A stretch of DNA of 54,690 bases, taken from positions 1 through 54,690 of IMG/VR virus record IMGVR_UViG_3300037246_000474. One strand, given 5' to 3'. The notes under the pieces are model-generated. The model searched no databases and was not told the origin of the DNA. It was given only the letters and a program-made list of their open reading frames with translations. Made by a program: the position numbers and the translations under genes. This document shows positions 21,149 through 51,133 of the stretch, piece after piece. The stretch comes from a virus. Taxonomy: Duplodnaviria > Caudoviricetes. Position 1 is the first letter of the stretch. Each line of letters begins with the position of its first letter.

Positions 21149-21152
21149 AAAA

Positions 21153-21227: not shown

Positions 21228-21238
21228 GTTATAATATT

Positions 21239-21704: not shown

Positions 21705-21714
21705 ATATATTAAA

Positions 21715-21787
21715 TGCCCAAGGAAGGATTCGAACCTTCAAATTACGGTTTCTAAAACCGCTGCCTCTGCCGTTCGGCTACTCAGGC
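21715..21787 (-). tRNA. tRNA-Leu(UAG) with short variable loop
   Basis: GCGGT-TTTAGAA-ACCGT; 5-nt variable loop; A73. Confidence 0.85.
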
Positions 21788-21963: not shown

Positions 21964-24900
21964 TTAGAGTTTGATCTTTTCAACAGCCATCTTCAACAGT
22001 TTATTCTTCATTACCGTTAAGCGATCTATCTTTGCACGTTTCTCCTGAGCAGACATATTCTTGTCTAATCGGGTTAACCTGACTCGCTTGGTAAGTGTCG
22101 CTACATTCTTCTGGATTTTATTTGCAAGCTTTCTGAACCTCAGCTTATCCTTATGCTTACGTGCATAATTCAATGCTTTTTCGGTTTCTCCAAGTGTCCT
22201 GTAATTCCGGACATCTGCATACGTCTGGTTCATTTCTTTTAATCCTTCATAGAATATGCTAGAATATTTCGTCTGCCTTGATGGTGTTTCGCCTACGAAT
22301 GAGCCTATCAAAGAATAATCTTCTATTCTGAATGACGGCTTGTTGGGAAATCCACCTGCTCGTTGTGTTAGCATGTCAACTCCACCAAGAACGAAACCGC
22401 CTAGCCATCCAGTATAACCGTTGACTAAATGCTCTATCTGCACGGGAGAAAGTTGTACCTTGTCCCATGGTATATGAGAAAATCCTTGACTCATGAGAAT
22501 TGCTGTCTCAGAAGTCCAAGCTTTCCTGCGTTCTGTTGGTGATAAGTTTTCCATTGCCAGTGTTTCAATAGGACGTTGTGTAAAGAAATTCTTATTAGCC
22601 ATTAGTTCAAGTACTGGCTTAACTGCCTGTGGTGCAATGTCAAAAGAAAACGTCTGCGTTAGGGCAAACTTCAATCGTTCGGCAAATAATGCTCCATGTA
22701 CCTTATCGTCTACGATTTGCTCAAGTGTTCTTTCTGCCAATGTCCCTATAACCCCTATTTCAAACGGCTTTGGAAGCCTAAAGGTATAGTCAGTGAAAGG
22801 GATTTTAAACCACCAATAAGTATCTCTGTCCCATTCCTCTCTTTCTTTAAATTCATCATCATCTTTATATGCTAAATACAATGCCATACTTGCCATTGCG
22901 ACTCCACCCGATACGAGTGCAAGCCTTGCTCCCTGCTCCTTGGTCATACTTCTACCAAGCTTACTCAATCCTTGGATACGAGCATTCATGAATGGTACAG
23001 TGTCGATTAAGAATCTAACTGCAGGCCACGCACCATGCCTGTTGAAATCTAACAAATCTCTCGCTTCGAAATTAGCTTCAAGGAAGCCCTCCTTATCTAA
23101 AGTCTGCTCAAATAACGCAGCCCTGTTAAGGTTCTCCCACCTGCTTCCAAATTCATTCCATGCGTCCAGTCCCTTCGCACTTGCATTCTTAAATTTATCC
23201 CACCCTGTCTTGTTATCAAGGATGCCCTCTTTACGTAGATTCCTGTTCAACTGTGCTTGTACTTTTTCAGGGTCAGTACCATACATATGACCGAACTGAA
23301 TGTTACCACCACCTGCCATCATTCTCATGAAAGACTCACTGCTTTTTTGTGTTGCTCTCCTTCCGCTACCAAAAACATTACCGATTAAATTCAGGCTGAT
23401 CTTGCTTGTTGCAGCAGACCCTACTGTATCACGGAATAAGTTTCTAACCTTAAAGTCTGGAGATGATGTAACGCCAAGAGTCAATAGCCTCTTGAATGAT
23501 CTCAATGCTTTCATTGGTCTACTGTTAAATCCCTCAAAGTTTAGATTTGTCAACGCCTGATATATATTTGGCTCATTAACTTCGTACCAAACTTTCTTAC
23601 CGTCCTCTCGGACAAACACGGCATTCGTACTCTTCTTTGCCAGTCTCTCTTCGATCATGCGTGTCAACTCTTCTTGACGTTCTTGGGCCGCTTCAAATGT
23701 GTCATAAGAGCCTCTGTCTTTACCAGAAAGTGCATCAACTACCTTGAACTGTCCAGACTCAGTCTCAACAACATCAATGTCAACATTAATTCTCTCTGCT
23801 ACAGGCTGACCACCTTCAATCTTCATGGTGATCGCTTTGTGTAGTGATTTGACAGCGACCTGATTCTTCAAACTGGCTCCAACCAAGTGATTCCAGTTAA
23901 GGATTATATTCGTCAGCATGTCAGCTATCGGAACGTCCTTGCCCTTCAACTCTTTAAATGCATTTTGATTGGCAATTCCACCCAAAGTTTTAGGACCCGC
24001 AGTTTGGTTTTTCTCCCTGTCCTCAATAAGACGGAAAAATGGTAGGTAATACCCCTCTCTCCATGATTCACGTTCTTTTGTACCGATTGTACCCGTCTCT
24101 TGTGCGACATCCAGTACTGATTGGTGTAGCTTTGAGAACTCAGTCCATACATCTCGGTATACAGACCTCCTGCTTCGACCATCCTTCATCTTGCCCTTGG
24201 TCAATCCCTTCAACAGCTTGATCTCGTCTTCGGAAAGGTTTTTCTCTTTATTGTGAACGAGCAAATCTTCTGCACGGTTACCTGCTATCCATCCCAACCA
24301 AAGCTCTAATTCTTCTCCTAACGGCTTGATGACATTAAATAGTCCCTTACCACCCTTTGCGTCTATAAGGTCAGGCACACCCTCAGTGAGCTTGATTCCT
24401 CCCATGGTCAGCAATGCCTCTACTGCACCAGAAGCGGATGTGGTTATTTGAGCCAGTTTCCATAGCTTATCGTCCAATTTCCTCAGACTTGCAAATTGAT
24501 CTATGGCACCCTGCTGTAATTTAAGCCACCAGTTTTTCTTCCATTCATCCAATCTCTCTTTGATTGTAATACCTTCGACTCTAGGAGATAGCTTCTTGTT
24601 GAATACTTCCTGAGTAGCTCTATCTACGTGTGGATTATCCGTGAAGTCTTTATCGGTAATTTTTCGTACCCTTCCACCCTCTTCCTCGAACGCAGACTTC
24701 TCTTCTTCAACAGATGACTCAATTCCATTCGATGCTACCCACGTATTGGTACCGACCTTTCGCACATATATAAATGCGTCTTTGATACGGCTCTCCATCT
24801 CACTAGGACTTAGCTCAGAAGGTTTCATTTTCCTTGGTGTCGCAGGGTAGTTCATGATAGCAAAACCACCACTTGCTGTAGCACTTGATATCTGGTTCAG

Positions 24901-27900
24901 CGTACCTCTCAACATCTCTTCATTGCTCTGAACATTAAGGACGTTTCCTGCCTGAACGACATCATACTGCTTATCTAGTGCCTTGGTATCATGGAGTCCT
25001 TCAACAACGTTTGTACCAAAATCATACGCAGTTACATTTGTATATCCCTGTCTCTCTAATATCTTAGTTTGCTTTGCGGCTTTACCTGAACCAAAATCTA
25101 ATATACTGGCATCTTTATCTTCGGTAAATTCCATCGTCAACCGAGTAGCGACTCTTGGCTCATCGTCTTTGACTAAATGATCTACGTTTGTTTTGTTGGC
25201 AATCGCTATCGCTTCATCAGAAAACGGCTTAGTGTCTTCTCCGAGAGTTGTCTGTATGTCTCCACCAAGGAATTTCTTCCTGTTCTTCTTCTTTGACTTG
25301 ACGGAGAACATCCTTCTGATAGATACCGTCTGATCTTCTTTGTACAGAATAGCATCCACAATCATGCCGTCTCTAATCAAACTGATAAGTGCGTCAGGAC
25401 TACTCGAACCTGCTTCCGGATTCAATGAAGTATCCAATGCAAGTGTTGCCTGTACTGAACCAAACATAACCGCAAGGTCCCTGATATCCTTTCTGAGTTG
25501 ATCGGTATCCTTACCCATAAGCTGTTTGACTGGCACATCAACGATGCCTCTTATATCGGTGTTTGCCGACATAAACGTGAGAGTCATAAAGCCCTCTTGG
25601 TGTTGTAATTCTTTACCGTATTTAATCACTGCATCGATATTAGACATCTCTCTTCCCAATAGCCTGTTCGGTACAGATGGCTTCAAGATTGCATCATCGG
25701 TTTTTATTGCCTTTACTCTTGCGTGTCCAGTAGGTGTTATATGTGCGTACTCTCCTGAGTCAACAACAACGTGTCCTGCGACTGCAGGTATAACTGCCGC
25801 CATCTGCTTGGTAAACTTCCTGTCTGCAGGAGAAGGTATAGCATTCCCACTTGGATGGTTATGTACAAACCATACCTTGTCAGCTTTCAAGTGTAATTGC
25901 TTCGCATTTATATTATCTATCTCGGTTCTTTGGTCATCGATAAATACTGAAACACTGCCTGGAAGCCTACTGGTTCTGGCTTCGTGACCGACAATGTGAC
26001 CCAACCTTGTGTATATTATTCTGAATGTTTCGTACTGAGGGTTTCTGAATACCTGAGATATCACTGCTATATCCTCTGCTGTTTCGGCTTTCATTCCACT
26101 GACCTCAATCTTGCCTTGCTTCATCATCTTCGGAGAGATACCATTGCCCTTGATTATATTCTCGGTACTCATAAGTGCGTCCGCAGCTATTTCCAGATTG
26201 ACAATATCACTCTTAAGTTCAGGGTGTTTCTCTACTATCTTTTTCTCAACCTTTTTTTTACGTACCTTCTTCTTCTCTGCCTTTGCCTTAACAGCGACAA
26301 CGTCTTTCTTCTCAGCTTTCTTCGTGGCAACATCACTCTTGATAGACTCGGAAAGTACCTTCTTTCTTAGATCATTTCTCTCAGCCACTGCCTGTTTATA
26401 ATCAGCTTGTGCAGCCGCTTTTTTCTTCGCACTGGAAGTGTTAAACCCTGCAATAGCTTTGAAGATTTGCTTGGAAAGCACAGCGTCTTGTTTCTCAGAT
26501 TCAGTATATGGAGCTTCACCCTTCTTAAGCTTTGCATTCGCATTACGAGGCTCAAGTCCAGTCATTGAGATGCCCTCTGCCTTTTCAGGTTCAGGCTCTA
26601 CCACTGCTTCCTTCTTCGCAACCTCAAGAGGAAGTCCTGCATCAACCAATATCTTCTCTAGGTCCTTTTTTTCGTCAGGAAATAGTTCAGGGTCAGTAAG
26701 CTCTTTACGTACCTGCCTTTCCTGCTCTTTAGATATTTTATCCTGAGCTTTGACTTCTTTCTTCGGCACTGGTTCCGTGGTTCCCGTTGGTTCCGGAACT
26801 GTCTCCGTTTTGTCTACAGTTGGCTCTTTTGATTGTTTTGTTAGTTTCTTAAAGAATTTCTCTTTGGTTTCTTTAGTTGGCTTTCCCTCTGGAAGTTCGG
26901 CTTTCGCTTTAGCGACATCCTCAGTTGTTGTCTTTTTTGCAACAACTTCTTCTGTGGGAATATCATCGTCATCTGGTATAACAGCAACCCCTGGCTCTGG
27001 CTTTATTGCCTTGGCTTTCTTAAGCTCTGCTTCTCTCTCGGCATTCTTAGTTGCATCTGGAACAACAGCGTCCCTGCCTACGTTGATAAGCTTTTTCTGA
27101 GCCTTTTCTGTCACCTTCACCTTTTTCTTCTTGACAGGTTTCTTCTCTTCCTTCTTAGGCTTCTCTTCCTTCTCGACCTTGATAGTCTTCTCGACCTTCA
27201 CCTCTTTATTCACAGCACTCTCAGCGTTTGCGTCAAGCATATCTGGCGCAGTAGCTTCCTTCGTTTCCTTGTTCTTCTCTTCCTCGCTACGTAGAAAATC
27301 TATAGCTTTTTGTTCTTTGTTAATCGTAGAAATACCTTGCATCATTTGGAATGCAGGAATACGTTGCTGTAAAGGCAGATTCTCTCTGTCCATTTCTTTC
27401 TGCAATGCCATCTGTAATTTCACAGAAGATATATTACTTATTTTACCATCTTGTAATTCCTTTTTATATTGAGTAAGCATAGTCTCCATGCCTAGATCAT
27501 TGTTGATATTCATCTTCATGCCTGACGCAACATATGACAGTCCTACAGCTTCCATCTTGTTAGCGATAGCGTCTGCATTTACATCTTCCATGCCACGTAC
27601 AATTTTTGCAATATCCTTTACTGCTTTCATCCTCTTCTGTGGACTGGCTTTTGCATCTTCCAACGCATGCCTGATACCCCATCTCTGTGCGGCATTTGCA
27701 GACTTACCCATACCAAAGAACAATAAGTTCGTGACGAAAGCGGGTCCGAGTGCGTCCATACCTGCACTCCATGAATTCATATCTGTAAGCCCAACATCCC
27801 TACGGAATTTATTTTCTAAAGCAGACTGTGCAAACTCAGTACCAACCTCAACAGGCGTGGTTAGTGCAAGTTGTTTCGCTCCAGTTTTTATAGCCTCTTT

Positions 27901-28662
27901 AGCACCCTTCTTGAATATATCTTTAACAGGAGCTTTGATTAAATTCTTTAATGTGCTTCTGCCTGGAAACCATTTAGAAAGCACTTTGACCTGTACCGCA
28001 TTTGCAATACCTTCCAAGCCACCTTCAACTGCACCTGCTTTCATTGCAGCCTCTTTGATTTCATGACGCACAACAATAGCTTCGGCTTCTGTCATATCTC
28101 CGGAAGCCATCTTCTCCCTGATTAAATCTTCACCCTCTTCTCTTACGGTATCAAATTCTGCCAATCCGAATATAGCACCAGACACTGCACCACCACCTAC
28201 TGCCGCACCGATTGGTCCACCCACGGCACCTGCAAGCATACCTGGAATCGCAGCAGACATACTTGGCATCATTGATCTAACGCCTTGTTGCCACCACCTT
28301 GATACACCTTCCTGAGCTTGATTATCTGGAGAGAGGCTAGGGTGCTTTGCCACAAAATTCTTGATAGAATCTAGTCCAAAGGTAGCGAAGTTCCTTATTG
28401 TCTCATTGCCTCCGAGTGGGTCAACAGCCCTAACTGCTCTCATCCATAATTCTGCAGTATCAACAGCACCACCTGCCAAAGCCTCTGCTGTCTCCATGAT
28501 AAAACCTTTACGGTTTAAAGAGTCATCGTCTTCTGGCTGAGTCCTGCTTCTTTGCGCACCACGGTCATAGTCTCTGCCGAAACTAGCACCATCGAACGAA
28601 TCACCCTGTTCTGTTTTTGCAGTCTGAAAGTCACTAAGAAACTGATCTATTTCGATTGTCAT
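21964..28662 (-). CDS. large polyvalent (probably ejected) virion protein: RadC/JAB + SAM-MTase + LPD38-like C-terminus
   Basis: HNHPSGNAIPSPAD...HVVV; ILDFGSG...NVLNV; C-terminal PFMNARIQG...RDTYWWF...LPKPFEIG. Confidence 0.85.
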   Translation of the reverse strand: MTIEIDQFLSDFQTAKTEQGDSFDGASFGRDYDRGAQRSRTQPEDDDSLNRKGFIMETAEALAGGAVDTAELWMRAVRAVDPLGGNETIRNFATFGLDSIKNFVAKHPSLSPDNQAQEGVSRWWQQGVRSMMPSMSAAIPGMLAGAVGGPIGAAVGGGAVSGAIFGLAEFDTVREEGEDLIREKMASGDMTEAEAIVVRHEIKEAAMKAGAVEGGLEGIANAVQVKVLSKWFPGRSTLKNLIKAPVKDIFKKGAKEAIKTGAKQLALTTPVEVGTEFAQSALENKFRRDVGLTDMNSWSAGMDALGPAFVTNLLFFGMGKSANAAQRWGIRHALEDAKASPQKRMKAVKDIAKIVRGMEDVNADAIANKMEAVGLSYVASGMKMNINNDLGMETMLTQYKKELQDGKISNISSVKLQMALQKEMDRENLPLQQRIPAFQMMQGISTINKEQKAIDFLRSEEEKNKETKEATAPDMLDANAESAVNKEVKVEKTIKVEKEEKPKKEEKKPVKKKKVKVTEKAQKKLINVGRDAVVPDATKNAEREAELKKAKAIKPEPGVAVIPDDDDIPTEEVVAKKTTTEDVAKAKAELPEGKPTKETKEKFFKKLTKQSKEPTVDKTETVPEPTGTTEPVPKKEVKAQDKISKEQERQVRKELTDPELFPDEKKDLEKILVDAGLPLEVAKKEAVVEPEPEKAEGISMTGLEPRNANAKLKKGEAPYTESEKQDAVLSKQIFKAIAGFNTSSAKKKAAAQADYKQAVAERNDLRKKVLSESIKSDVATKKAEKKDVVAVKAKAEKKKVRKKKVEKKIVEKHPELKSDIVNLEIAADALMSTENIIKGNGISPKMMKQGKIEVSGMKAETAEDIAVISQVFRNPQYETFRIIYTRLGHIVGHEARTSRLPGSVSVFIDDQRTEIDNINAKQLHLKADKVWFVHNHPSGNAIPSPADRKFTKQMAAVIPAVAGHVVVDSGEYAHITPTGHARVKAIKTDDAILKPSVPNRLLGREMSNIDAVIKYGKELQHQEGFMTLTFMSANTDIRGIVDVPVKQLMGKDTDQLRKDIRDLAVMFGSVQATLALDTSLNPEAGSSSPDALISLIRDGMIVDAILYKEDQTVSIRRMFSVKSKKKNRKKFLGGDIQTTLGEDTKPFSDEAIAIANKTNVDHLVKDDEPRVATRLTMEFTEDKDASILDFGSGKAAKQTKILERQGYTNVTAYDFGTNVVEGLHDTKALDKQYDVVQAGNVLNVQSNEEMLRGTLNQISSATASGGFAIMNYPATPRKMKPSELSPSEMESRIKDAFIYVRKVGTNTWVASNGIESSVEEEKSAFEEEGGRVRKITDKDFTDNPHVDRATQEVFNKKLSPRVEGITIKERLDEWKKNWWLKLQQGAIDQFASLRKLDDKLWKLAQITTSASGAVEALLTMGGIKLTEGVPDLIDAKGGKGLFNVIKPLGEELELWLGWIAGNRAEDLLVHNKEKNLSEDEIKLLKGLTKGKMKDGRSRRSVYRDVWTEFSKLHQSVLDVAQETGTIGTKERESWREGYYLPFFRLIEDREKNQTAGPKTLGGIANQNAFKELKGKDVPIADMLTNIILNWNHLVGASLKNQVAVKSLHKAITMKIEGGQPVAERINVDIDVVETESGQFKVVDALSGKDRGSYDTFEAAQERQEELTRMIEERLAKKSTNAVFVREDGKKVWYEVNEPNIYQALTNLNFEGFNSRPMKALRSFKRLLTLGVTSSPDFKVRNLFRDTVGSAATSKISLNLIGNVFGSGRRATQKSSESFMRMMAGGGNIQFGHMYGTDPEKVQAQLNRNLRKEGILDNKTGWDKFKNASAKGLDAWNEFGSRWENLNRAALFEQTLDKEGFLEANFEARDLLDFNRHGAWPAVRFLIDTVPFMNARIQGLSKLGRSMTKEQGARLALVSGGVAMASMALYLAYKDDDEFKEREEWDRDTYWWFKIPFTDYTFRLPKPFEIGVIGTLAERTLEQIVDDKVHGALFAERLKFALTQTFSFDIAPQAVKPVLELMANKNFFTQRPIETLAMENLSPTERRKAWTSETAILMSQGFSHIPWDKVQLSPVQIEHLVNGYTGWLGGFVLGGVDMLTQRAGGFPNKPSFRIEDYSLIGSFVGETPSRQTKYSSIFYEGLKEMNQTYADVRNYRTLGETEKALNYARKHKDKLRFRKLANKIQKNVATLTKRVRLTRLDKNMSAQEKRAKIDRLTVMKNKLLKMAVEKIKL

Positions 28663-32056: not shown

Positions 32057-32701
32057 CTATTCTCCTTTATATAATCCATGCATTGCCCTTGCAACCTCAT
32101 GTAGTTCGAGATCGTTGAAGTGCATACATCGATAGTCATAGTGAGCAAAGATTAAAAATCCCTGCTTAGTTGCTCTCTCGCAAAATGCGATGTCATTACC
32201 TTTGTCAACAGTGCCGTCAACATTATATGTTCTTTGGAACGGAGCTTTTCTCATTTCTGGATGCTCGAAAACTCTACGTGCATAAAGCACACACCCTGTC
32301 CCTACTGCATCTACTCTTTGTAATCCCTTTTTATCTGGCCATTCTGTATAAGCACCTTCTTCTGGTACTGCCTTGTATGCATTCTCGTATATTGGACGCT
32401 CACCTTTCACCTTATCTGTAAAGTGCCACACTGGAGTAGGTAGCCCTATTATATCAAGATTGAATATCACCAAGTCTAACGGGTTGCTCATTGGTGGATT
32501 GTCTGAGTCTATGTTCAACCAGAAATCATATTCACCTGCCATAAACTCGTTCACTATATGATGTAAATTATTTTCATATGGATTGTGAGTTGGATAAATG
32601 ATCGTACTTTTATATCTTTGGTCTGTAAGTATCCTGTTTGTTGCCAAGCTTACTAATTTGTGTACATATCCTGTGTTCGGTACTGTAACGAGTATTTTCA
32701 T
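32057..32701 (-). CDS. GT-A fold (GT2-like) glycosyltransferase
   Basis: KILVTVP, LNIDSD (DxD), VDAVGTGCVL, NDIAFC; start ATG 32701. Confidence 0.8.
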   Translation of the reverse strand: MKILVTVPNTGYVHKLVSLATNRILTDQRYKSTIIYPTHNPYENNLHHIVNEFMAGEYDFWLNIDSDNPPMSNPLDLVIFNLDIIGLPTPVWHFTDKVKGERPIYENAYKAVPEEGAYTEWPDKKGLQRVDAVGTGCVLYARRVFEHPEMRKAPFQRTYNVDGTVDKGNDIAFCERATKQGFLIFAHYDYRCMHFNDLELHEVARAMHGLYKGE

Positions 32702-32720
32702 TTTATTCCCCAATAAAATA

Positions 32721-32774: not shown

Positions 32775-33323
32775 TTAAACAACTGCTTTTCTGTCCAACA
32801 TGTTAACTCCGGATTTTACTTTCTTGTCAACCCAAAGCTTGTTGTGATTCTTCCTGATACCCCTTGTTTCAGTTGTAACATCGATAGCGTCTGCCTTTTC
32901 AGGGACAGCCAGTCCGAGTGCTTCCTTCTGAGTGATAGCATCAAGAACATCTGTATCAACGTGTTCTGCAGCTTCGTGTGCATGAGCCTTGTCATTATAG
33001 AATGCTTCAAACTCGGCTGATGTTAGCTCTGTAATATCCGCAGGAAACAATGCAAGTGCTTCATCTGCAAAAGCTGCCTCAACTGCTATAACGCAACACT
33101 GCTGACCGAACGGAGTATCACCCTCTTCTTTGTGGCCACAATCCTTGTCATACTGCATTCCGATACCAAAGGCATCGATGTAAGAACACCAGTCCATGCC
33201 TTTCCTTGCCACGTTACTCACTTTGTTGAACTCAGGGTACTTTGCATGTCCTATCTTGTTACCACCCTTGTCTACTGTGTGTATTCCTGCGTGGAACTTT
33301 AGTGCTACCAAATCTCTTGCCAT
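32775..33323 (-). CDS. hypothetical (tail-associated) protein
   Basis: AAGGAG SD; 182 aa. Confidence 0.75.
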   Translation of the reverse strand: MARDLVALKFHAGIHTVDKGGNKIGHAKYPEFNKVSNVARKGMDWCSYIDAFGIGMQYDKDCGHKEEGDTPFGQQCCVIAVEAAFADEALALFPADITELTSAEFEAFYNDKAHAHEAAEHVDTDVLDAITQKEALGLAVPEKADAIDVTTETRGIRKNHNKLWVDKKVKSGVNMLDRKAVV

Positions 33324-33347
33324 CTTTTTTCTCCTTGTTAAAAAAAA

Positions 33348-37226: not shown

Positions 37227-38456
37227 TTAGGTTGCTGTTATATATTCTGATTTTGATGATGTTGCTATACAATCATAATCGACATTGACTACGTTGGGTC
37301 TGTTTGACCACCACCCTTCTGGAGCTATAAGGGCCATAGGCGTTCTGTCTATAGGTGTTGGTGATACCGTTGCCCAATCATCAAAGCTTGTGAATGTGAT
37401 AGTTATGGGTGTTTCGGCTATCCTTAACTCCCTTACCTGTTCTGTCATTTCTATTGCAAGCGCAAAACTGCTATTAGCGTTTTCAAATAAAGGCAAATAT
37501 GGAGTAGTATTTATAAGTATCTTTAATTTATCTTGTGGGGTATCCAGTCTTGCCGCATAAGCCTCCGCACCCATTGCCATCCTTTGGGTAGAAGTTGTTA
37601 TTGCTGCCCTATTTCCTGCCAGTATATATGCGATAAACGTTTCAACGTCAAAGAAATCAGTGATTTCGTATTCCCACACAGAATATCTTTGCCTATAGAA
37701 GAAACCCCTAAAACCAGAACTACCCAAATCTCCTTCATCGTCCCACCCTGGACCTTCATCAACGTAAATGTTTTGCTCTGCGTATACACTATCCGATACT
37801 GTAATCTCTGCAAACGGCTTTGCATTAACATCTGCAAGTGCCTCAGCGTTGACTTCGTCTTGATCTCGGTCAGGTTGAAGCGAACCTTCCCACGCATGGA
37901 AATCACTAATTCTCTCGAAGCTAGTTACATTCGTAGCGATGAGTCCTATTGCTGTTTGTACGAATTGGGACTTAAACGTGTTCCATGCTTTTACACTTAC
38001 ATCGAAAACACCGCTTTCTCTGTATTTGTGTGTTAGCTTGTTTGCGCCTCCTGTACCTCCTTGACCCTTACGTCCATCACCATATGATATTATAAGAGTT
38101 GATCTCACTAGGTCGTTAATTTTAGGTTCAAATCCTTCTGCGGTGAAGGTAAAAACTGTTTCGAGTGGAGAGGCTCCTTCTAGTACATCCCCAACAAAAC
38201 CGATGCTACAACCAACACCACCCTCTGCACATGAGTGTATCCTGATGAAGTCAGAACCGCCTATAGATAGTAGATGCACCCACACACAATCTCGGTCTAA
38301 GTAATGCACCCTCTTCATATATTGAAGCTTTCCTATCCTCATCACCTGTTTCATTTCAAACATGCGTCTCTTTGCTATGCCTACGTATGTACCTGCTCTC
38401 TGCCGATCTCCCGACAGAATTAATCCTCTCCCCGATTGTATGTTGATGTTTCTCAT
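37227..38456 (-). CDS. tail protein with PKD-like domain
   Basis: ISYGDG...THKYRESGVFDVSVKAWN. Confidence 0.7.
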   Translation of the reverse strand: MRNINIQSGRGLILSGDRQRAGTYVGIAKRRMFEMKQVMRIGKLQYMKRVHYLDRDCVWVHLLSIGGSDFIRIHSCAEGGVGCSIGFVGDVLEGASPLETVFTFTAEGFEPKINDLVRSTLIISYGDGRKGQGGTGGANKLTHKYRESGVFDVSVKAWNTFKSQFVQTAIGLIATNVTSFERISDFHAWEGSLQPDRDQDEVNAEALADVNAKPFAEITVSDSVYAEQNIYVDEGPGWDDEGDLGSSGFRGFFYRQRYSVWEYEITDFFDVETFIAYILAGNRAAITTSTQRMAMGAEAYAARLDTPQDKLKILINTTPYLPLFENANSSFALAIEMTEQVRELRIAETPITITFTSFDDWATVSPTPIDRTPMALIAPEGWWSNRPNVVNVDYDCIATSSKSEYITAT

Positions 38457-38472
38457 TATTTTAAGTGTATAT

Positions 38473-38518
38473 AAAAAAAGGGCCGACAGTATCAGCATAT
38501 GCCAACACTATCAGCCCT
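38473..38518 (-). terminator. intrinsic terminator
   Basis: AGGGCTGATAGTGTTGGC...GCTGATACTGTCGGCCCT followed by a T-run. Confidence 0.8.
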
Positions 38519-38545
38519 CGAATAAAACCTGCAAACGAAGGGCTT

Positions 38546-38611
38546 TGGTGAACTACCTTCTAAGGGGGAACAACAATGATATGGGGTATCAAAGTTCATG
38601 TCCAGTAGTTC
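38546..38611 (-). ncRNA. candidate CCA-tailed antisense RNA
   Basis: GAACTACT/GGTAGTTC stem + ACCA; internal CATTGTTGTTCCCCCTT complementary to the RBS at 41989-42005. Confidence 0.5.
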
Positions 38612-38621
38612 GTTAAAGACC

Positions 38622-39065
38622 TTACGCAGCAGGCATAGTGATGTCGAACGTATCAATCGTTGTCGTTGCAGCAGACGTAATTGATGTCGAACTCATATTC
38701 AATTCTGCACCAGATGTTGACACGGCACCCTGTATACGAATCTCAGAGGTACTTGTTCCATTAGCATCAGATGTACTCGCACAATACCTAAAGTATCCTG
38801 CCGTTCCAGTAGCTACAGCGACACCATCCCAAGTATTTGAGGACTTAGATAGTACTCCTGCGACTGCTGTGTTTAAGAAATGTAGGTTGTAGGCACTACC
38901 TGTAGACGTGTTAATTGTTACAAGCAATGTACCAGTTGCGGTGTCATCAGCCGTTGCAGGTGCAGAGCCAGACCAAATTCTGATCTCTCCTGCAGCAAGT
39001 AACGTATTCAGACCTGCGGTGTGTAGGATTCCTTGACGGAGTCCTGTGGATAGACTTAGAGTCAT
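38622..39065 (-). CDS. small Thr/Ala/Gly-rich virion structural protein
   Basis: IRIWSGSAPATADD...GTAGYFR...RIQGAV motif common in phage tail modules. Confidence 0.8.
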   Translation of the reverse strand: MTLSLSTGLRQGILHTAGLNTLLAAGEIRIWSGSAPATADDTATGTLLVTINTSTGSAYNLHFLNTAVAGVLSKSSNTWDGVAVATGTAGYFRYCASTSDANGTSTSEIRIQGAVSTSGAELNMSSTSITSAATTTIDTFDITMPAA

Positions 39066-39140
39066 AACTTTCTCCTTAAATAGTAAAGGTATTAAAATAA
39101 ATTAATTCGTCACCTCTAGCGTATTCGGGAGTTCTGGTCT

Positions 39141-39180
39141 AAGTACTAATTGGGTACTAATTGATACTAAATTAGTATTT
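39141..39180. promoter_or_regulatory. TACTAA(T) tandem/inverted repeat, candidate operator
   Basis: TACTAA at 39144, 39155 and 39165 plus the inverted repeat ATACTAA-A-TTAGTAT. Confidence 0.4.
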
Positions 39181-39226
39181 AGGGAGTCAGAGTCAAATTG
39201 CTAAATAGCATTATTCTCTTTGTTGC

Positions 39227-40165
39227 TTATGTCCACAATGATGCAATATACTGCGGTACACCACCTGTGATTTTAAATTGACCTGCACCGTAACGGTTTT
39301 GGGTCACTTCGTATTTAGTTGCTGTTAAATTGGTGAACCTTCCACTGTTCTCTCCAAGGCATATTCCTTTGCGTGAAGTCCATATCACTTTCTTACCTAC
39401 GTTCCCATCACCGACATAAGCGGATTTGGTCTTCACTGCAGTACCTTCAATCGCTCCATAGTGTGCAACTTCTCTTGAATGCATATCTACCGGAGTACTT
39501 CCTGTCAGAAACAAAATTGAGCTTCTGTCATTTATATCACCAATGGATACATACAATCCGTCATCCACTGCTTTCATCATAGTCACTTCATCCTTCATCT
39601 TAATGGCATTAGTTCTCATATCAATAACACCATGGTTATATGCATCAGTGTACCAGATTGTTTCGTTTTTCGCAATATACAATCTGCCGTTATAATACTC
39701 AATGTGTTGACCTGTCTTCGTAGCTACCTTGTAATTGTCAGAAGGTGTAGAGTACTGGTTATCAGCACCAGTTGAATCAATATACCCATTAACCGTAGCG
39801 TTTGAATAATAAACATTTTCATTGACATCTACAAAGCCCATTGGTTGGTTTCCGCAGTCAGTCCTTATTGTTGTAGAACTGTAATCTGACCACAATCTCT
39901 TTAGAGTAGTTCCGTCCATAAATAGACAGATACGATCATTGCTCCAAAGACTATGCATTTTATCGGAAGGAGTAAATATCCTCGTATACCCATTTCGCCT
40001 CTTCACCTTTCCTTCGTTATCTATATCGACATTCTCGCCCTCTGCCAGTTCACCTATCTCTAGGTTATTAGCATCAGCTACATTATTGATACCTGTGAAA
40101 TTCTGGAACGGTATCTCTGACCCACTAAGGCTTCTGTTCTTTGCATCTTCTCTATTTTTTGCCAT
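39227..40165 (-). CDS. tail nozzle/stabilisation-like beta-propeller protein
   Basis: FTGINN...ENVDIDNEGKVKRRNGY N-terminus typical of podovirus nozzle proteins. Confidence 0.7.
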   Translation of the reverse strand: MAKNREDAKNRSLSGSEIPFQNFTGINNVADANNLEIGELAEGENVDIDNEGKVKRRNGYTRIFTPSDKMHSLWSNDRICLFMDGTTLKRLWSDYSSTTIRTDCGNQPMGFVDVNENVYYSNATVNGYIDSTGADNQYSTPSDNYKVATKTGQHIEYYNGRLYIAKNETIWYTDAYNHGVIDMRTNAIKMKDEVTMMKAVDDGLYVSIGDINDRSSILFLTGSTPVDMHSREVAHYGAIEGTAVKTKSAYVGDGNVGKKVIWTSRKGICLGENSGRFTNLTATKYEVTQNRYGAGQFKITGGVPQYIASLWT

Positions 40166-40770
40166 TAGTCATTTAGTATTTTCTTAGAACCAAAGTATTT
40201 TTCAAATAATGCTAGATAGTCTGCGGCTTTATCTGTATTCAACGTCTCGGAATCATTCTTCAAATATGCCCTGTAGCACATCCATAAAACCAACCCTTGG
40301 TGATACCTAGAATCGATCTCCGGACTGCCATTTACCGTCATTGGAGTGGTTGGAAACCTCGAAACAGTCAGGTTCAATACAGAAGCCACTGAGGGTATCG
40401 GGTAGATGATTATGTTGTTAGTTGGGGTCATGACATAGCTTCGTGGTGTTCCTTCGGCTGTGCGCCATCCTGGGACGCTATTATCCAAGACTTTCTCCGA
40501 GGTTTCCATCAGAGGCTCTGAGCCGTTTGCCATCAGTGCTGATTTGACTGCTATCACTGTTGAAGCTATTCCGTAGGTGCCTGTTGTCGATGTCGTGACA
40601 ATACCAGTGAGTGCGCTTTCAGTATCGATTATAAGGTCGGCTCTCTCGCATGCTTCATTCTCAGCATCCTGTGCATACTCAAGCAACTCCAACTGTGACC
40701 ATAATTTGTCAGTAGTTGAATTGTCATCAAGCGTTCGTCTTGCTGATAACTCCATAGATGAAAAGTCCAT
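40165..40770 (-). CDS. head-tail adaptor-like protein
   Basis: ARRTLDD...WSQLELLEYAQDAENEAC...GTPRSY...IYPIP; start ATG 40770. Confidence 0.75.
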   Translation of the reverse strand: MDFSSMELSARRTLDDNSTTDKLWSQLELLEYAQDAENEACERADLIIDTESALTGIVTTSTTGTYGIASTVIAVKSALMANGSEPLMETSEKVLDNSVPGWRTAEGTPRSYVMTPTNNIIIYPIPSVASVLNLTVSRFPTTPMTVNGSPEIDSRYHQGLVLWMCYRAYLKNDSETLNTDKAADYLALFEKYFGSKKILND

Positions 40771-40859
40771 TATCTTCCTCTCTTGAATAAATAATACTTG
40801 AGCCACTTACCAGTGGAGGTCTTTGTTTTAAGCTTTTTCCTTCCGGATTTCCTCTTCAT
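40770..40859 (-). CDS. 29-aa highly basic peptide (not in the ORF track)
   Basis: MKRKSGRKKLKTKTSTGKWLKYYLFKRGR; TAATG overlaps at both ends. Confidence 0.55.
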   Translation of the reverse strand: MKRKSGRKKLKTKTSTGKWLKYYLFKRGR

Positions 40860-41521
40860 TAATCTACTACTACACTACGTGGTGACCTTACCCGTCCTAC
40901 AACAAATGATCTTGGCTTTACCTCTATCTCTTCACCATCTTTGGCGATCTCCACCTTGAGTCGGTTTCTACGCTTCTCGTAATCCCTCTCAAAGTATACC
41001 GCAAGCTCTGCATTAAATGCTTTCGGTGAAGTGTATATCTTCCACTTGACGTAAGATTTAACTGCCTCTTTATGTCTTCTCTCTATTCTTGGTGGAACCA
41101 CACCATCCACACTGTTAGGTTCTATAATAGCTTCTACTGAATAAGATGTAGCTGTATCTGGTGTGACATTGAAACGTATACCATTATCGCCATCGTATAT
41201 AGCTCCGTCAGGTGTTCCTGATCTTTGCTCCCATTCCGAATCCCTTTGGTCCATTGCTCTATTAGAAATCGGGTCCAGAGTCTTGTTATTGTATTTGGCT
41301 TGCCATAAACCAACCATGTCTGCATTGGCAGTCATAACTGAAACGGCATACGAGGCTGTATCTGCGGTAGTCGTTAAGCCTGTAACAGATTCCGTCCAAC
41401 AGGAAGTCTCTCTGCACAAGTCCTGTATACCATCAAGCATGAGTTGTTCAACGAATATATCCTTCGTATCTGGCAACTCGGCAATTATCTTTATCCTGAA
41501 ATCTAATATATTTAATGACAT
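40859..41521 (-). CDS. head-tail adaptor-like protein (paralog)
   Basis: DLCRETSCW...GTPDGAIYD...FNVTPD. Confidence 0.7.
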   Translation of the reverse strand: MSLNILDFRIKIIAELPDTKDIFVEQLMLDGIQDLCRETSCWTESVTGLTTTADTASYAVSVMTANADMVGLWQAKYNNKTLDPISNRAMDQRDSEWEQRSGTPDGAIYDGDNGIRFNVTPDTATSYSVEAIIEPNSVDGVVPPRIERRHKEAVKSYVKWKIYTSPKAFNAELAVYFERDYEKRRNRLKVEIAKDGEEIEVKPRSFVVGRVRSPRSVVVD

Positions 41522-41991
41522 TATAAGCGTTTTCCTTCTTCGTCAATCAGCCAACATTCGATTAAATCAGTCCTCTTTGCAAGCAGTTCTGTCCATTCAA
41601 ACACACGTCTGTTCTTCGGATTGAATATGTATTCCGGAGTAATCCTCGTCTCTCCTGTCTCTTTTATATTTACATTGCTACTGTTTGTGTCTGTTGGTAT
41701 TTCTAATTTATTTTTAATAAGAAGAACGACCTCAGTCCTGAGCATCTTAAGTCTCTTGCTCAAATCAAGTCTCTTTCCCAAACGAGAGTCTGTATACTTT
41801 TGCAATCCCATCTTGTCCATCTCAACAACTTTCAGTATATCTTCTCTGCAGACCAACTCTGGTCTATTTGGTTCTTTGCCCTCACCGATAGCCAATGACT
41901 CTTCACTCTGATTTGTGTCTTTTGATTTCTCTGCAACCGCAGTCGCACCCTGTTCAAGCTGATCGATTAAATCATCCTCTGGATTTCCCAT
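41521..41991 (-). CDS. conserved hypothetical head-module protein
   Basis: AAGGGGGA SD; C-terminal VFEWTELLAKRTDL. Confidence 0.75.
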   Translation of the reverse strand: MGNPEDDLIDQLEQGATAVAEKSKDTNQSEESLAIGEGKEPNRPELVCREDILKVVEMDKMGLQKYTDSRLGKRLDLSKRLKMLRTEVVLLIKNKLEIPTDTNSSNVNIKETGETRITPEYIFNPKNRRVFEWTELLAKRTDLIECWLIDEEGKRL

Positions 41992-42019
41992 TGTTGTTCC
42001 CCCTTGACATTATTATTAT

Positions 42020-42066
42020 AAAACTAAGGGAAGGAGAGGCCTCGAAAGCTATTCTCCCTCCCTCAG
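42020..42066 (-). terminator. hairpin/terminator after the capsid genes
   Basis: CTGAGGGAGGGAGA...TCTCCTTCCCTTAG followed by TTTT. Confidence 0.6.
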
Positions 42067-42084: not shown

Positions 42085-42546
42085 TTAAAATGCAGTGTCA
42101 TTACCTGGGTCAGCTATAAAACCCCAAGCTCCAACTCTGATCTTTGCAGCATCCAGATCGGCAACTGGTATGATGTCAATCGTGTCAGCTACAGGATAAA
42201 ATTTTCCTCTACCACTGTTTCTCGCACCATATACTGCAGTAGTGCTACAGAAGTCAGTAGAAGTAGTGTTCAGATTACACATTGTAGTTGTTAGCCAACC
42301 ATCAGTGTCTACTCCGTCACCCACTTGACATGGTGTAGAAGTTGGCCACTCAGCAACCTGTGTCTCAACAAATACTCCCATGCAGAAGAACCCTGCAGGA
42401 ACATTAAGCATCTGCAATACATCTGCAGCAGTTACAGTGTTAGCTGCAACGCTAAAGTCCCTCGTTCTTTGGAGCAACACCATCTTCGGCATATCCTTCT
42501 CTGATATACCTTGAGAGCCTCCAAGTGTTAAATTTCTAAGTGCCAT
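42085..42546 (-). CDS. capsid decoration/cement-like protein
   Basis: follows the MCP gene; ADVLQMLNVPAG...VGDGVDTDGW. Confidence 0.65.
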   Translation of the reverse strand: MALRNLTLGGSQGISEKDMPKMVLLQRTRDFSVAANTVTAADVLQMLNVPAGFFCMGVFVETQVAEWPTSTPCQVGDGVDTDGWLTTTMCNLNTTSTDFCSTTAVYGARNSGRGKFYPVADTIDIIPVADLDAAKIRVGAWGFIADPGNDTAF

Positions 42547-42590: not shown

Positions 42591-43466
42591 TTACACCTTA
42601 GTTGCTGGCATGTAAACTCCGGCTTCTGGTTTCGTTGCCTTGTAACCATATACCTTTAGACCCCTGATAGCGTCTCCGAAGCTGTTCTGCAATCTCAATG
42701 TTTCAGTCTTTACAAACTGAGAAGCGAAAGAGATGAAGTGCTTCGTTCCTGCCATACAGTGGAAGGTTCCGCTTGCAGCAACTCCTGTGAGAGCGATGTT
42801 GTTACTGTTGTACAGCGTAAACCTATCGATCATACCAAGTCTACCGTTCCTCATTATAGAGGTTCCATCTCCGGCAAGTGATGCATCCTTAAGATCAGAC
42901 TGCTTTATCATACCTGCAATCCATGGCGGTATTACCAACCAACGTCCTGCTTCTGGAACATTTGCTTCATCCAGTGCAGTACCTGCATTGATTATCCATA
43001 CCAATACATTAGACGCTGTAACAACCGTTGATGCCAGTACGTTAGCTGCGTCAGTGTACACGTTACCCAAAACATCTTGGTCAACGACAATCTTCATCTG
43101 CTCAGATGCGTCTTGAGTAGTTTTGTTTACAATCGCAATGTCAGACTGAACTTCGTCAATGTCATCTACCTTAAATGCAAAGTATTTGGCCTTGTCGATA
43201 AGCAATTCAATCTTGTCATCTTCTAAGTCTTGGTAGTTGATTGTACCACCAATTCCGTAGTCTCCAATGGTAACTGTTGGAATAGCTCTGATTATGACCT
43301 TACTACCAGAACCCTTGATCTCACCTTCCCAATCATGGTTAGCGATCTCTCCCAATACTGTTGATGCATAGAACTTCGCCTGCATCTTCTTAGACCATAT
43401 TTCAGGTATAAAATTACCATTAGGTAACGAACTATATCCTGCGGCAACTGATACGTGTCTTCCCAT
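42591..43466 (-). CDS. major capsid protein (P22 coat-like)
   Basis: NFIPEIWS...EGEI...GSKVII; GRWLVIPP; GDAIRGLKVYG. Confidence 0.9.
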   Translation of the reverse strand: MGRHVSVAAGYSSLPNGNFIPEIWSKKMQAKFYASTVLGEIANHDWEGEIKGSGSKVIIRAIPTVTIGDYGIGGTINYQDLEDDKIELLIDKAKYFAFKVDDIDEVQSDIAIVNKTTQDASEQMKIVVDQDVLGNVYTDAANVLASTVVTASNVLVWIINAGTALDEANVPEAGRWLVIPPWIAGMIKQSDLKDASLAGDGTSIMRNGRLGMIDRFTLYNSNNIALTGVAASGTFHCMAGTKHFISFASQFVKTETLRLQNSFGDAIRGLKVYGYKATKPEAGVYMPATKV

Positions 43467-43615: not shown

Positions 43616-43936
43616 CTACTGTAGAAAAAGCTTACCGTCAGCGACATCCTTATCGATCAGGTGTTCGATTTTGATAAACTCTTCCAATTCCATATCTTCA
43701 ATTTGACTTCTTGAATACTTGCTAAAAACTTCATCGTCTTCGCCAAGTATGGTTCTTATCTTTTTCAGTTTTGCCTTAAGAGATATATTCTCCGTGGCAT
43801 CAACATTCGCCTGACCCTTCCACTCGTCTCGGTTTTTCTCCGCTTTTCTGAGCCTGTATCTAAGGTCATCGGTAGTGTATGATTTTGATACTTCTATACG
43901 TTTACTTCCAAGCAACTTCTTTAATATCCCAAACAT
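43616..43936 (-). CDS. small protein carrying a copy of the scaffold C-terminal motif
   Basis: YSRSQIEDMELEEFIKIEHLIDKDVADGKL versus scaffold FTRSQINNMDDAEFAKNEDAIDRAMASGQI. Confidence 0.7.
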   Translation of the reverse strand: MFGILKKLLGSKRIEVSKSYTTDDLRYRLRKAEKNRDEWKGQANVDATENISLKAKLKKIRTILGEDDEVFSKYSRSQIEDMELEEFIKIEHLIDKDVADGKLFLQ

Positions 43937-45235: not shown

Positions 45236-47401
45236 TTATGTCCTCTTGTTATTTGTCTGTGCGCCATCATTCTTTGATGTTTTATTTGTTGCACCTACGG
45301 ATGTTTTCTTCTCTCCTGCAGTCTTCTTGCTCTCTGCAGACTTCATAGATATCATTGCGTCAATCTCTTTCTCTTTCAGTCGTAGTAAGGCAGCAGCTTC
45401 AATTTCCTTGCCCTGCAGTTCTATCGCCTTTAGCCTCATTAGCTCTTGATCGTTTTCAATAGCTGCTTGGTTACGTGAAACTTCTGACTGCTCCTTATCG
45501 ATCTTAGAAGATATCTCTTCGTTCTCAAGAGTAGCTCTGCTCATTGCCAACTGGTCCATCTGTTTCTTAACAGGGTCATCTGCAAGTTGCTTGATCTCTT
45601 CTGGAGTCTTGACAACTTCGTCCTCATTAAGTCCCTGATTCTCGGCAACCATTCGAAGCATATTGTCACGTTTTGTCAACTGGATATCCGTTGGGTTATT
45701 CGTGATATTCAACATGTTAATAAGTTGCGTAGTCATGACCTCGGCTTTCAATAGAGTACTCGAACCTTTAGCGTCAACCTTTTGGTCACCCTTGATAGAT
45801 TCATCGTCACTCCATTGCATAAAGAACATGTATAGCTTCGTGAAGAACGGGTCGATAGCGTATCTGTCTACGTTGCTAACAACCGCCCTTTGTACTATGT
45901 TTGCAGCATTCTGCAGAAGTTGTGTACCCTGTGCAGTCTCATGACCTCCCGTGTCTCCAACACCACTCGTCCCTGCAGTTGGTAGATTAGTTTCTTCGTC
46001 AATGAAGACTCGGAATATGTTGATTATCTCAACCAGTTCTCTACTTACGCTTTGAAGGTTATGCACTCGCATTAATGGTGTTTGGGCATCTCCACCTGTT
46101 CTTGGATGTACTTTAAACGGATAAATATCATCTATCTGCTTAACTGCCTCTGGAGACAAGTCATCTATATTGATCTCAATTTGTGGACCAAGCAATGCTA
46201 CGTCATCTAATAATCTTCTTGCAGCGGCATTTAGTATCTCTTGACTGTCTGCGCATATCTCAGGCACTCCACGACCCCATATCTTTTTTGATACTTTCTC
46301 ATATGGGAATATGAAGAATGGCAATCCGTCATCTACTGACGGGTCCAATACTGCCTTGATAACTTCACCGCCTACTATCCATACATTAGCCATGAATTCC
46401 TCTGACATCTGAGCTTCTGTGATGTCAATTCCCATGGTACTAAGTTCTTCACCGTCTACGTATCCCCAATACTCAAGGACATCATATCGTGTATGGGTTT
46501 CCTGAATTTGCGACTGATGTGCAAGCTTCTTCCTTTCGATCTCATGGCATTCATCCATGTGGTCACCGCCTGGATATTTCAGCAAATACGCATCAATCTG
46601 GTGGCTGTTAAATCCTGCGAACTTCTTTAGTTTTCTGAATTCGTGTTTATTCAATACGTGACGTTGATAGCACCCTATTCCAACTTTCATGTCGGAAGCA
46701 TCAGGGTCTGGATATACATCGAATATTGATGGTGCTTCTAATTGTGGTTTTATTTCAAGTTCTTCTTTGGCTTGGAACTGCCATCCTGCGTCAGTATCCA
46801 TCCACCCAAAATCTCTCTCGACTTTAATGGACGCTGATTTTATACACCCTGAGCCTAAGATAACCTGCTCAAGTAATGCTTCAAGGAACAACAGATCATA
46901 ATCAGACTCAACCAACTGGTCATTAATCCTAAATGACATTGCTTCTGCGGCTTTATCTGCAGGAGATTGTTCTTCCTTGATTTGTGGTGCATCGGGAATG
47001 CCCGTTAAAACCTCTGCCTTTGCCGCTACTCCTTCAAATATAGATGGTTCCGGAGTTGGTTTAATTTCCCAATGCCTCTTGCCAGTTGCAGGGAAGAAAA
47101 CGTCAACAAGTCTTGAGTACGCAGCCATCACCTTCATTCGTGTAATGCCCACATACGTGTGCGAACGACCTGCTTTTATAGCGTTCTCTATCTCTGATTC
47201 ATATTGAGAATAAAATTGTCTAAGATTGATAAGCCACTGTTCTTCTTGCGGAAGCCTGATATCTTTCCACGACTGCCACCTTGACTGTAACTGCGCACCG
47301 AAAGTAAGGACTTCTGCCTCTCCTTCAATACCTAACAACTCTCGTTGCTTTTCTTCTTCGTTGACAGCTTCAATTGACTTCGTTTGAACTAATCCTGACA
47401 T
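45236..47401 (-). CDS. portal protein (P22-like)
   Basis: 721 aa after TerL; FDVYPDP, VLEYWG, WGRGV, ETAQG, C-terminal coiled coil. Confidence 0.88.
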   Translation of the reverse strand: MSGLVQTKSIEAVNEEEKQRELLGIEGEAEVLTFGAQLQSRWQSWKDIRLPQEEQWLINLRQFYSQYESEIENAIKAGRSHTYVGITRMKVMAAYSRLVDVFFPATGKRHWEIKPTPEPSIFEGVAAKAEVLTGIPDAPQIKEEQSPADKAAEAMSFRINDQLVESDYDLLFLEALLEQVILGSGCIKSASIKVERDFGWMDTDAGWQFQAKEELEIKPQLEAPSIFDVYPDPDASDMKVGIGCYQRHVLNKHEFRKLKKFAGFNSHQIDAYLLKYPGGDHMDECHEIERKKLAHQSQIQETHTRYDVLEYWGYVDGEELSTMGIDITEAQMSEEFMANVWIVGGEVIKAVLDPSVDDGLPFFIFPYEKVSKKIWGRGVPEICADSQEILNAAARRLLDDVALLGPQIEINIDDLSPEAVKQIDDIYPFKVHPRTGGDAQTPLMRVHNLQSVSRELVEIINIFRVFIDEETNLPTAGTSGVGDTGGHETAQGTQLLQNAANIVQRAVVSNVDRYAIDPFFTKLYMFFMQWSDDESIKGDQKVDAKGSSTLLKAEVMTTQLINMLNITNNPTDIQLTKRDNMLRMVAENQGLNEDEVVKTPEEIKQLADDPVKKQMDQLAMSRATLENEEISSKIDKEQSEVSRNQAAIENDQELMRLKAIELQGKEIEAAALLRLKEKEIDAMISMKSAESKKTAGEKKTSVGATNKTSKNDGAQTNNKRT

Positions 47402-51056: not shown

Positions 51057-51133
51057 TGGTGGCGGTGGCAGGATTCGAACCTGCGATTCCGGGGATATGA
51101 ACCCCGTGAGATAGGCCACTTCTCTACACCGCT
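51057..51133 (-). tRNA. initiator tRNA-fMet(CAU)
   Basis: unpaired A1:C72; CGGGG-TTCATAT-CCCCG with consecutive G-C pairs; encoded CCA. Confidence 0.9.

Follow-up and report, generated by a model that had tools for sequence, protein, structure and literature searches.

A conserved 3' untranslated element of a phage structural gene is complementary to the ribosome-binding site of a gene 3.4 kb upstream

The virus record IMGVR_UViG_3300037246_000474 (Duplodnaviria; Caudoviricetes) was analyzed over its whole length of 54,690 bases, here called the window, which is the complete IMG/VR record with a completeness estimate of 80%. All genes of the structural module around the locus described here lie on the minus strand, and one of them, gene 38622-39065, has in its 3' untranslated region (3'UTR) a conserved structured element. 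After the TAA stop codon (38624-38622) the order on this strand is GAACTACT (38611-38604), GGTAGTTC (38557-38550), ACCA (38549-38546) and a terminator. Within the element lies a 17-nucleotide (nt) sequence, here called the anti-RBS, which is the exact complement of the ribosome-binding site (RBS) of gene 41521-41991, covering its Shine-Dalgarno (SD) sequence, spacer and AUG. With a rough probability of 0.6, estimated from sequence comparisons, it is proposed here that the anti-RBS at the 3' end of the operon pairs with this RBS and limits translation of gene 41521-41991, the target gene. The two RNAs would then pair in the cell, with a presumably negative effect, either in cis or in trans. The features on which the proposal depends are the following:

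41989..42005, minus strand: target site AAGGGGGAACAACAATG, the SD, spacer and start codon of gene 41521-41991
41521-41991, minus strand: target gene, 156 aa, which adjoins, on the upstream side, two SU10_adaptor paralogues
38622-39065, minus strand: element-carrying gene (element in its 3'UTR), a 147-aa virion structural protein (phrog_3758, E = 2.4e-21)
38550..38611, minus strand: conserved structured 3'UTR element, with an outer 8-bp stem around the pseudo-RBS side, an inner hairpin and the anti-RBS
38611-38604 with 38557-38550, minus strand: outer stem, 8 bp
38578..38590, minus strand: inner hairpin GATA-CCCCA-TATC (GATG..CATC in most relatives, GATG..TATC in L024)
38562..38578, minus strand: anti-RBS 17-mer CATTGTTGTTCCCCCTT, exact complement of the target site
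38546..38549, minus strand: ACCA after the outer stem, present in one of eight elements and not conserved
38469..38519, minus strand: intrinsic terminator T2, with a 19-pair stem (38519..38478) followed by a T run

The layout of the minus-strand unit given in a preliminary description of this DNA, with its stem arms, ACCA and downstream terminator, agrees with the sequence, and so does the exact 17-nt complementarity. A search of the window with CATTGTTGTTCCCCCTT at up to three mismatches returned only two matches, at 38562-38578 on the minus strand and at 41989-42005 on the plus strand; the shuffle control gave a mean of 0.25 matches, with at least two in 3 of 100 shuffles. Of the 25 longest inverted-repeat pairs (41 in total), three are 100% complementary; this pair is the longest of them, and the other two have 15 nt. 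When the 21-nt core was scanned against every 30-nt window of the minus strand (step of 5 nt), the duplex energy was -30.9 kcal/mol at the SD and AUG of the target and -19.4 kcal/mol at the next site on the whole strand, a gap of 11 kcal/mol. Cofolding of a 95-nt piece of the 3'UTR with 81-nt windows gave a net gain of -18.0 kcal/mol at the target, which ranked second of 2012 windows (mean -4.4, standard deviation 2.5). The thermodynamics of the pairing between element and target are thus favorable and, taken alone, not decisive.

Regulation of a whole set of late genes, as first proposed, does not follow from these scans, where only the site at gene 41521-41991 stands out. The three further targets named earlier have energies of -16.1 (43936), -17.1 (32713) and -17.3 kcal/mol (about 43555), within the cloud of non-RBS sites, and the pairing at 43936, reported as 13 of 14, has by eye 12 Watson-Crick pairs, one G.U pair and one mismatch. 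The minus-strand genes 43616-43936 and 32057-32713 have a direct repeat, ATTTTATTGGGGAATAAAA, common to both starts just before the ATG (about 43952-43934 and 32716-32699), and this RBS is also kept in the relatives L012, L027 and L028. Another repeat in the window, inverted, 31 nt long and 94% complementary, connects 5560-5590 on the plus strand with 33312-33342 on the minus strand and corresponds to the RBS-plus-start cassette ACAAGGAGAAAAAAGATGGCAAG, which two different genes, one on each strand, have in common (MASDIEV... and MARDLVA...).

No nucleotide-level relatives of the window were found by megablast and blastn among 50,697 GenBank phage records, and the closest cultured phages by protein (tblastn) are KPP25-like Pseudomonas and Acidovorax podophages, at 36-43% identity. 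Relatives were collected through protein-guided scans, which gave seven viral contigs with the 147-aa gene, four metagenome contigs, 11 contigs via the head protein and 23 via the adaptor profile. In prokaryote genome contigs the adaptor-protein profile found no relative, and variants of the element gave six matches, all in unrelated coding sequence. Eight distinct complete elements were available, from the window and from the contigs L019, L003, L006, L021, L023, L024 (to which L025 is identical over the 3'UTR) and L026; the elements of L020 and L022 are cut by contig ends, and the 3'UTR of L005 is divergent.

The C-rich anti-SD motif between stop codon and terminator is kept in the eight elements, and a shorter version of it is found in L005. 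A 27-nt core, GATGCCCCACATCATTGTTGTTCCCCC, is identical in five of the eight, the window and L024 differing from it just at a covarying pair of the inner hairpin (GATA...TATC in the window, GATG...TATC in L024) and L026 at 7 of 27 positions. The anti-RBS 17-mer itself is invariant in seven of the eight elements, L026 being the exception, and the sequence flanking the core, outer stem included, diverges strongly. In all four contigs that contain both sites (window, L002, L013 and L006), 16-17 Watson-Crick pairs are kept and the target lies upstream of the element at a distance of 3.4-4.1 kb, so that the complementarity is conserved wherever element and target can be read together. The best partner of the element in these four contigs is the orthologous RBS, at -30.9, -28.7, -31.2 and -30.9 kcal/mol, with the next best sites at -16 to -21 kcal/mol.

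The target RBS is conserved as well. Among eight contigs whose target proteins are 47-76% identical to that of the window, its 15-nt core GGGGGAACAACAATG is unaltered in six; the two changes in L028 and the one in L020 are all A to G, and each G can still pair with a U of the standard element. Within the 20-nt stretch closed by the start codon, variable columns number 8 for the target, five of these upstream of the G run, against 16 for the MCP gene, 16 for gene 42546 and 14 for gene 39065. The target has these fewest variable RBS columns despite the lowest protein identity of the genes compared (mean of 61%), and its RBS is also kept in L033, where the first 28 residues of the protein are missing. 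The other late genes have AGGAG or GGAGG as SD with variable spacers, and the target RBS is atypical for the phage. Alignment of the relatives for covariation between the 17-mer and the RBS, as suggested by the preliminary description, gave one compensatory change at the edge of the duplex, the flanking pair just 5' of the G run being A:U in the window, L019 and L006 and U:A in L021.

Around the anti-RBS, the RNA is structured. The 156-nt 3'UTR folds at -52.5 kcal/mol (z = -5.3), as well as which none of 200 shuffles folded, and across the relatives whole 3'UTRs reach -45 to -61 kcal/mol when folded as the gene strand, compared with -30 to -42 kcal/mol as the opposite strand. In the 66-nt unit described earlier, the 8-bp stem is present and covaries; the fold of this unit on its own is weaker (-16.0 kcal/mol, z = -2.3, equalled by 8 of 200 shuffles). 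A structure model with the outer stem, a short middle helix and the inner hairpin was evaluated across the eight distinct elements, where 90.6% of 149 cells were paired and 6 of 19 pairs were altered on both sides, values reached by none of 500 shuffles; paired cells fell to 29-67% when the 3' partners were slid, and RNAalifold returned the same outer and inner helices. Over all pairs, read on the minus strand, there are 11 G.U cells versus 4 A.C cells, and therefore the fold belongs to the mRNA (minus) strand. The inner helix is 100% paired, with five G.U and no A.C cells, and its pair 38/44 is GC in six elements, GU in one and AU in one, a compensatory route via G.U that exists on the minus strand only. 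The last three C of the anti-RBS and the following UU are predicted to be unpaired, and the C-rich seed is predicted unpaired in five of nine 3'UTRs, intermediate in three and paired in one. A covariance model built from the element alignment (R1) finds exactly one copy per genome; L005, L020 and the nine contigs of the distant clade that were searched gave no match.

This distant clade, with an adaptor identity of 34-39%, gave 15 upstream regions of target orthologues, of which 12 were analyzed; L106 and L120, where the called start of the open reading frame (ORF) looked wrong, and L121, with too little downstream sequence, were left out. Its target RBSs have GGAGG with varied spacers in 11 of the 12, and in L111 the same SD is read as GGAGGC. 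In nine of nine contigs, the SD of the next gene comes no more than about 10 nt after the orthologue of gene 39065. No intergenic complement of the target RBSs was found downstream in this clade, the best sites having -13 to -24 kcal/mol, and the strongest of them (L111, -24.3 kcal/mol) falls inside the coding sequence of the gene-39065 orthologue. Phage KPP25, the one inspected among the cultured phages matched by tblastn, is likewise without the element, with overlapping genes and an ordinary RBS at the target position, the sites of the distant clade and KPP25 being GGAGG or AGGAG. The element, terminator T2 and the unusual RBS therefore co-occur by clade.

The structural module that includes both genes has the following further features:

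45236-47401, minus strand: portal (Pfam SU10_portal)
42591-43466, minus strand: major head protein (phrog_267)
42085-42546, minus strand: gene for a 153-aa protein
42018..42064, minus strand: hairpin T1 with a U tract, between gene 42085-42546 and the target RBS, read from folds (12-pair, G-rich)
40859-41521 and 40165-40806, minus strand: two SU10_adaptor paralogues
39227-40165, minus strand: 312-aa 'head closure Hc3' protein
38513..38544, minus strand: possible alternative hairpin H2, AGCCCTTCG with CGAGGGCT, overlapping the base of the T2 5' arm

The product of gene 38622-39065 also matches PDB chain 44nx_B, 'Structural protein' (E = 9.7e-27). The target protein had no match in PHROG, Pfam and PDB sequence searches, and its AlphaFold model (pLDDT of 69.6) had no Foldseek match at E<=0.001. 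Elsewhere in the window, the minus strand has seven clustered tRNA genes (Glu, Pro, Thr, Asn, Gly, His and Leu) and a separate tRNA-Met (19789-21787 and 51057-51133), as well as a 2232-aa ORF at 21964-28662.

A G+C-rich hairpin like T1, followed by a T run, is present in seven of seven contigs, and KPP25 has one at the same position. T1 is missing from the consensus terminator scan because its loop exceeds 8 nt, and it is probably a terminator. If T1 terminates, the unit that ends at T2 has the target as its first cistron, and both ends of one mRNA would be joined by the pairing. The consensus scan found no minus-strand terminator between target and element, both of which may be carried on one transcript, and a hairpin equivalent to T2, with a T run, is found in every relative 3'UTR.

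Directly before the target SD and after the T1 hairpin lies TAATGTCAA (region 42006-42064, minus strand), which resembles the gp36 promoter element tAATGTAtA of phiEco32, as given in the available part of PMC8948821. The motif TAATGT[AC] has 12 sites on the minus strand of the window and none on the plus strand; a promoter role for TAATGTCAA was set aside, the other 11 sites having no promoter pattern by eye, with 10 seemingly intragenic and one over the start of gene 40859-41521. Upstream of T2, a GGCTTTCG-like sequence (38513-38544, minus strand) can pair with the first 7-8 nt of the T2 5' arm in eight of eight relatives, and in some of them the nucleotides immediately following the stop codon are an alternative partner, an attenuator-like layout. 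H2 is pairable in eight of eight sequences, with 88.5% of cells paired as against 34-61% for slid partners; this is equalled by 181 of 500 shuffles, however, and H2 was not retained as an antiterminator for want of statistical support. A micro-ORF on the gene strand (MNFDAPHHCCSPLEG...) was also rejected: six of nine 3'UTRs have it, L021 and L005 do not, L026 has it shortened to 7 aa, and it is without SD. Beyond the terminator, the ATG listed for ORF 37227-38498 (38498) sits in the T2 loop, and by homology with the relatives the start is at 38456 (MRNINIQ...). The gene starting there, on the minus strand, is without SD, and TTTATATAC or TTTATATGC follows the terminator in most relatives; the sequence after T2 (38456-38498) may be a promoter with a short A-rich leader.

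According to the proposed mechanism, the 3'UTR of the last gene in the late structural unit (41521-41991 ... 38622-39065, T2) carries the conserved stem-loop, of which the anti-RBS forms the 3' side, and the anti-RBS would form 17 Watson-Crick pairs with the SD, spacer and AUG of the target gene, which lies 3.4 kb upstream. The duplex would block binding of the 30S subunit and so limit this one protein relative to the downstream adaptor and virion proteins, and it may also create a double-stranded site for RNase III. In cis, the pairing would be a 5'-3' fold-back within one mRNA, once the operon has been fully transcribed; in trans, it would be made by a terminator-protected 3' fragment or by a short mRNA of gene 38622-39065. 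For the latter, the spacer at 39066-39226 (minus strand), of about 160 nt between genes 39227-40165 and 38622-39065, could be relevant. It is strongly conserved in nine relatives and reads ...TTTGACTCTGACTCCC, then a hairpin whose sequence varies with the arms staying complementary, then CCAGAACTCCCGAATA...GAATTAATTTATTTTAA; the hairpin is flanked by two ACTCCC repeats, and the arrangement is single-copy in the window. Rfam gave chance-level matches only over this conserved intergenic region (39040-39260), and the spacer may serve as a promoter, as a site of processing or as an RNA element of another kind. If this conserved 160-nt spacer upstream of gene 39065 holds a promoter, a short and abundant mRNA would deliver the anti-RBS in trans.

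A more elaborate form of the mechanism, doubtful as it stands, is that the element is a timer of transcription completion that also circularizes the mRNA. The first cistron after T1 would then be translated just while RNA polymerase copies the unit of 3.4-4.1 kb, and the anti-RBS, emerging just before T2, would fold back on the 5'-proximal RBS and close that cistron. The ends of the operon mRNA would be joined, and the dose of the 156-aa protein fixed relative to the adaptor and virion proteins. Through the competition of H2 with the T2 base, read-through into the tail genes further downstream might also be tied to this state.

Several observations weigh against the anti-RBS proposal. No covariation is seen in the 15-nt paired core, since neither side varies in any contig where the two can be read, and therefore the pairing is not proven. 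The informative variants stand apart from their partners: the contigs of L028 and L020, which carry the A to G changes, are without their own element, and the contig of L026, with the altered element, is without its target. The target predicted from L026, GGGAACAACATCAATG, was scanned for in viral contigs and gave 66 matches, none in a relative; a search for the rest of the L020 element with its 17-nt start matched L020 alone. The C run is predicted to be paired in L019. In the cofolding analysis, an unrelated coding window (29229) reached -18.1 kcal/mol, above the -18.0 of the target, and a first test with a differently placed target window gave a gain of just -9.3 kcal/mol, with -11.7 for the best of 100 shuffled targets. 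The genome reuses RBS cassettes among real genes, one pair of them on opposite strands, and an RBS sequence held in common does not alone point to antisense pairing. Finally, the co-occurrence at the level of clades counts as a single evolutionary event. The pairing model makes predictions for the missing partners: the target RBS of an L026-type phage would be GAGGGAACAACAUCAAUG or a variant that still pairs, rather than GGGGGAACAACAAUG, and phages of the L020 and L028 types would have the standard element, with G.U tolerated, or a C opposite the new G.

The reuse of cassettes is one point in favor of the alternative that the plus strand is the functional one. Here, GGGGGAACAACAATG at 38564-38578 would be the RBS of an antisense micro-ORF of 10 aa (MIWGIKVHVQ), and the likeness to the target would come from the reuse of an RBS cassette, as with the other cassette common to real genes on opposite strands. 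Such a micro-ORF is found at the expected spacing in eight of nine 3'UTRs, with 10 aa in five and 9, 13 and 35 aa in one each, the relatives encoding peptides such as MMWGIKVHVQ, MMWGIKVHIG, MMWGINVNVK and MLGINVHVR; in addition, seven unrelated viral contigs have the 17-mer GGGGGAACAACAATGAT at places where, on the other strand, it has the form of an SD and start codon. However, L005 has no ATG, the stop codon is lost in L019 and L023, no promoter is conserved on the plus strand, and every neighboring gene is on the minus strand. The third codon positions are as invariant as the rest, and just two changes occur, which are both sides of a single base pair, whose G.U intermediate pairs just on the minus strand. 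A micro-ORF would also leave unexplained the frozen target RBS and the covarying stem around the whole ORF, which makes this reading unlikely.

The second alternative keeps the minus strand and takes the stem-loops as a 3'-end stabilizer, or an attenuator tied to T2, the upstream RBS match having no function; in the attenuator form, the base of T2 would be in competition with H2, and H2 in turn with a stem adjacent to the stop codon. The position of the element directly upstream of T2, the pairable H2 of all eight sequences and the fold of the full 3'UTR, far better than that of shuffles, are consistent with it. A structural role would need the stems and not an invariant sequence of 15-17 nt prone to be single-stranded, yet the stems vary freely and the anti-RBS does not. 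As this explanation also leaves the frozen and atypical target RBS unaccounted for, and H2 is equalled by so many shuffles, it is regarded as quite unlikely.

The 17-mers could also act as DNA, either as inverted binding sites of a regulator or as crossover sites of an invertible 3.4-kb segment, given that as double-stranded DNA both sites are identical, inverted and conserved. This is very unlikely: the record, 80% complete, has no match to a serine recombinase (PF00239), tyrosine recombinases not having been searched, the orientation is the same in all four contigs with both sites, and inversion would strip genes of their promoter. The site is non-palindromic and the inverted repeat ends exactly at the SD and AUG; in L026, 7 of 27 core positions are altered, yet the sequence is still the complement of an SD, spacer and AUG, and the RNA hairpin is kept via G.U pairs.

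Least credible is the maturation put forward in the preliminary description, a 66-nt CCA-ended species cut out by RNase P in the manner of P1 C4 and P4 CI and repressing several morphogenesis genes in trans, since, although the window does have an 8-bp terminal stem followed by ACCA and the anti-RBS itself is real and conserved, the NCCA occurs in one of eight elements, that of the window only (the other seven continue with TAAT, ATAC, ACGG, ATCA, ACAC, GAAA and ATTC), there is no tRNA-like or Rfam match, C4 included, and the extra targets have background energies. ARAGORN found eight tRNAs in the window and none at the element, Rfam at gathering scores found in the window only tRNAs elsewhere, and Rfam at E<=10 over 38400-38700 gave three chance-level matches, none of them a tRNA or C4.

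Among phages, P1 C4 and P4 CI are RNAs that occlude the RBS of a co-transcribed gene and mature via RNase P at a tRNA-like stem with CCA. The element described here would resemble them as a phage RNA that occludes an RBS, and differs in its unconserved CCA and in having no Rfam match. In the retroregulation of lambda sib, an RNase III hairpin is formed locally at sib. Common to the proposal, lambda sib and the RNA phage Q-beta is the control of an upstream cistron by a segment of the same RNA that lies downstream or far away; however, Q-beta has an RNA genome and sib a local RNase III hairpin, and neither is a 17-bp anti-RBS at the end of an operon of a double-stranded DNA (dsDNA) phage. In Q-beta, long-range RNA pairing controls an RBS, according to the available part of PMC2978339.

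The closest known case, by analogy, is the icaR mRNA of Staphylococcus aureus, where, in the accessible text of PMC3868564, the 3'UTR sequence UCCCCUG pairs with the SD of the same mRNA, blocks formation of the initiation complex and creates a substrate for RNase III. On this description, both have a C-rich motif (UCCCCUG in icaR, UUCCCCC here) in the 3'UTR upstream of the terminator, complementary to an SD region on the 5' side. However, icaR is monocistronic, and in the phage a distance of 3.4-4.1 kb separates the partners, the target gene and the element-carrying gene having four cistrons between them; the predicted phage duplex is also longer than that of icaR, with 17 bp including the AUG, and the element belongs to a phage structural module and has a covarying stem of its own. 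A second comparison is SdhX, a small RNA (sRNA) from the 3' end of the sdh-suc operon mRNA, as reported in PMC6393394; sRNAs of this kind are the subject of the review PMC9438474. Similarities to this type are a regulatory sequence at the 3' end of a long operon mRNA, a common terminator and a conserved single-strand seed, but sRNAs of the SdhX type have their targets in other operons, and it is RNase E, with Hfq or ProQ, that releases them, whereas the only outstanding target of the phage element is in the same gene module. The available passages of a review of phage sRNAs (PMC12197685) contain none on 3'UTR anti-RBS sequences for structural genes, and a literature search found no such case in phages; it did not cover supplements and is not proof that none is in print.

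For the most part, RBS strength, frameshifting and mRNA processing are held responsible for the control of structural-protein stoichiometry in dsDNA phages. If the anti-RBS proposal is true, pairing of the icaR type between 3'UTR and SD would be extended to a polycistronic viral mRNA and to one cistron several kilobases upstream. With a 17-bp duplex, one target and natural variants, the locus would be a small test system. The combination of a frozen, atypical RBS with a frozen 3'UTR complement in a covarying stem may also serve as a recipe for the search of long-range pairs in other phages.

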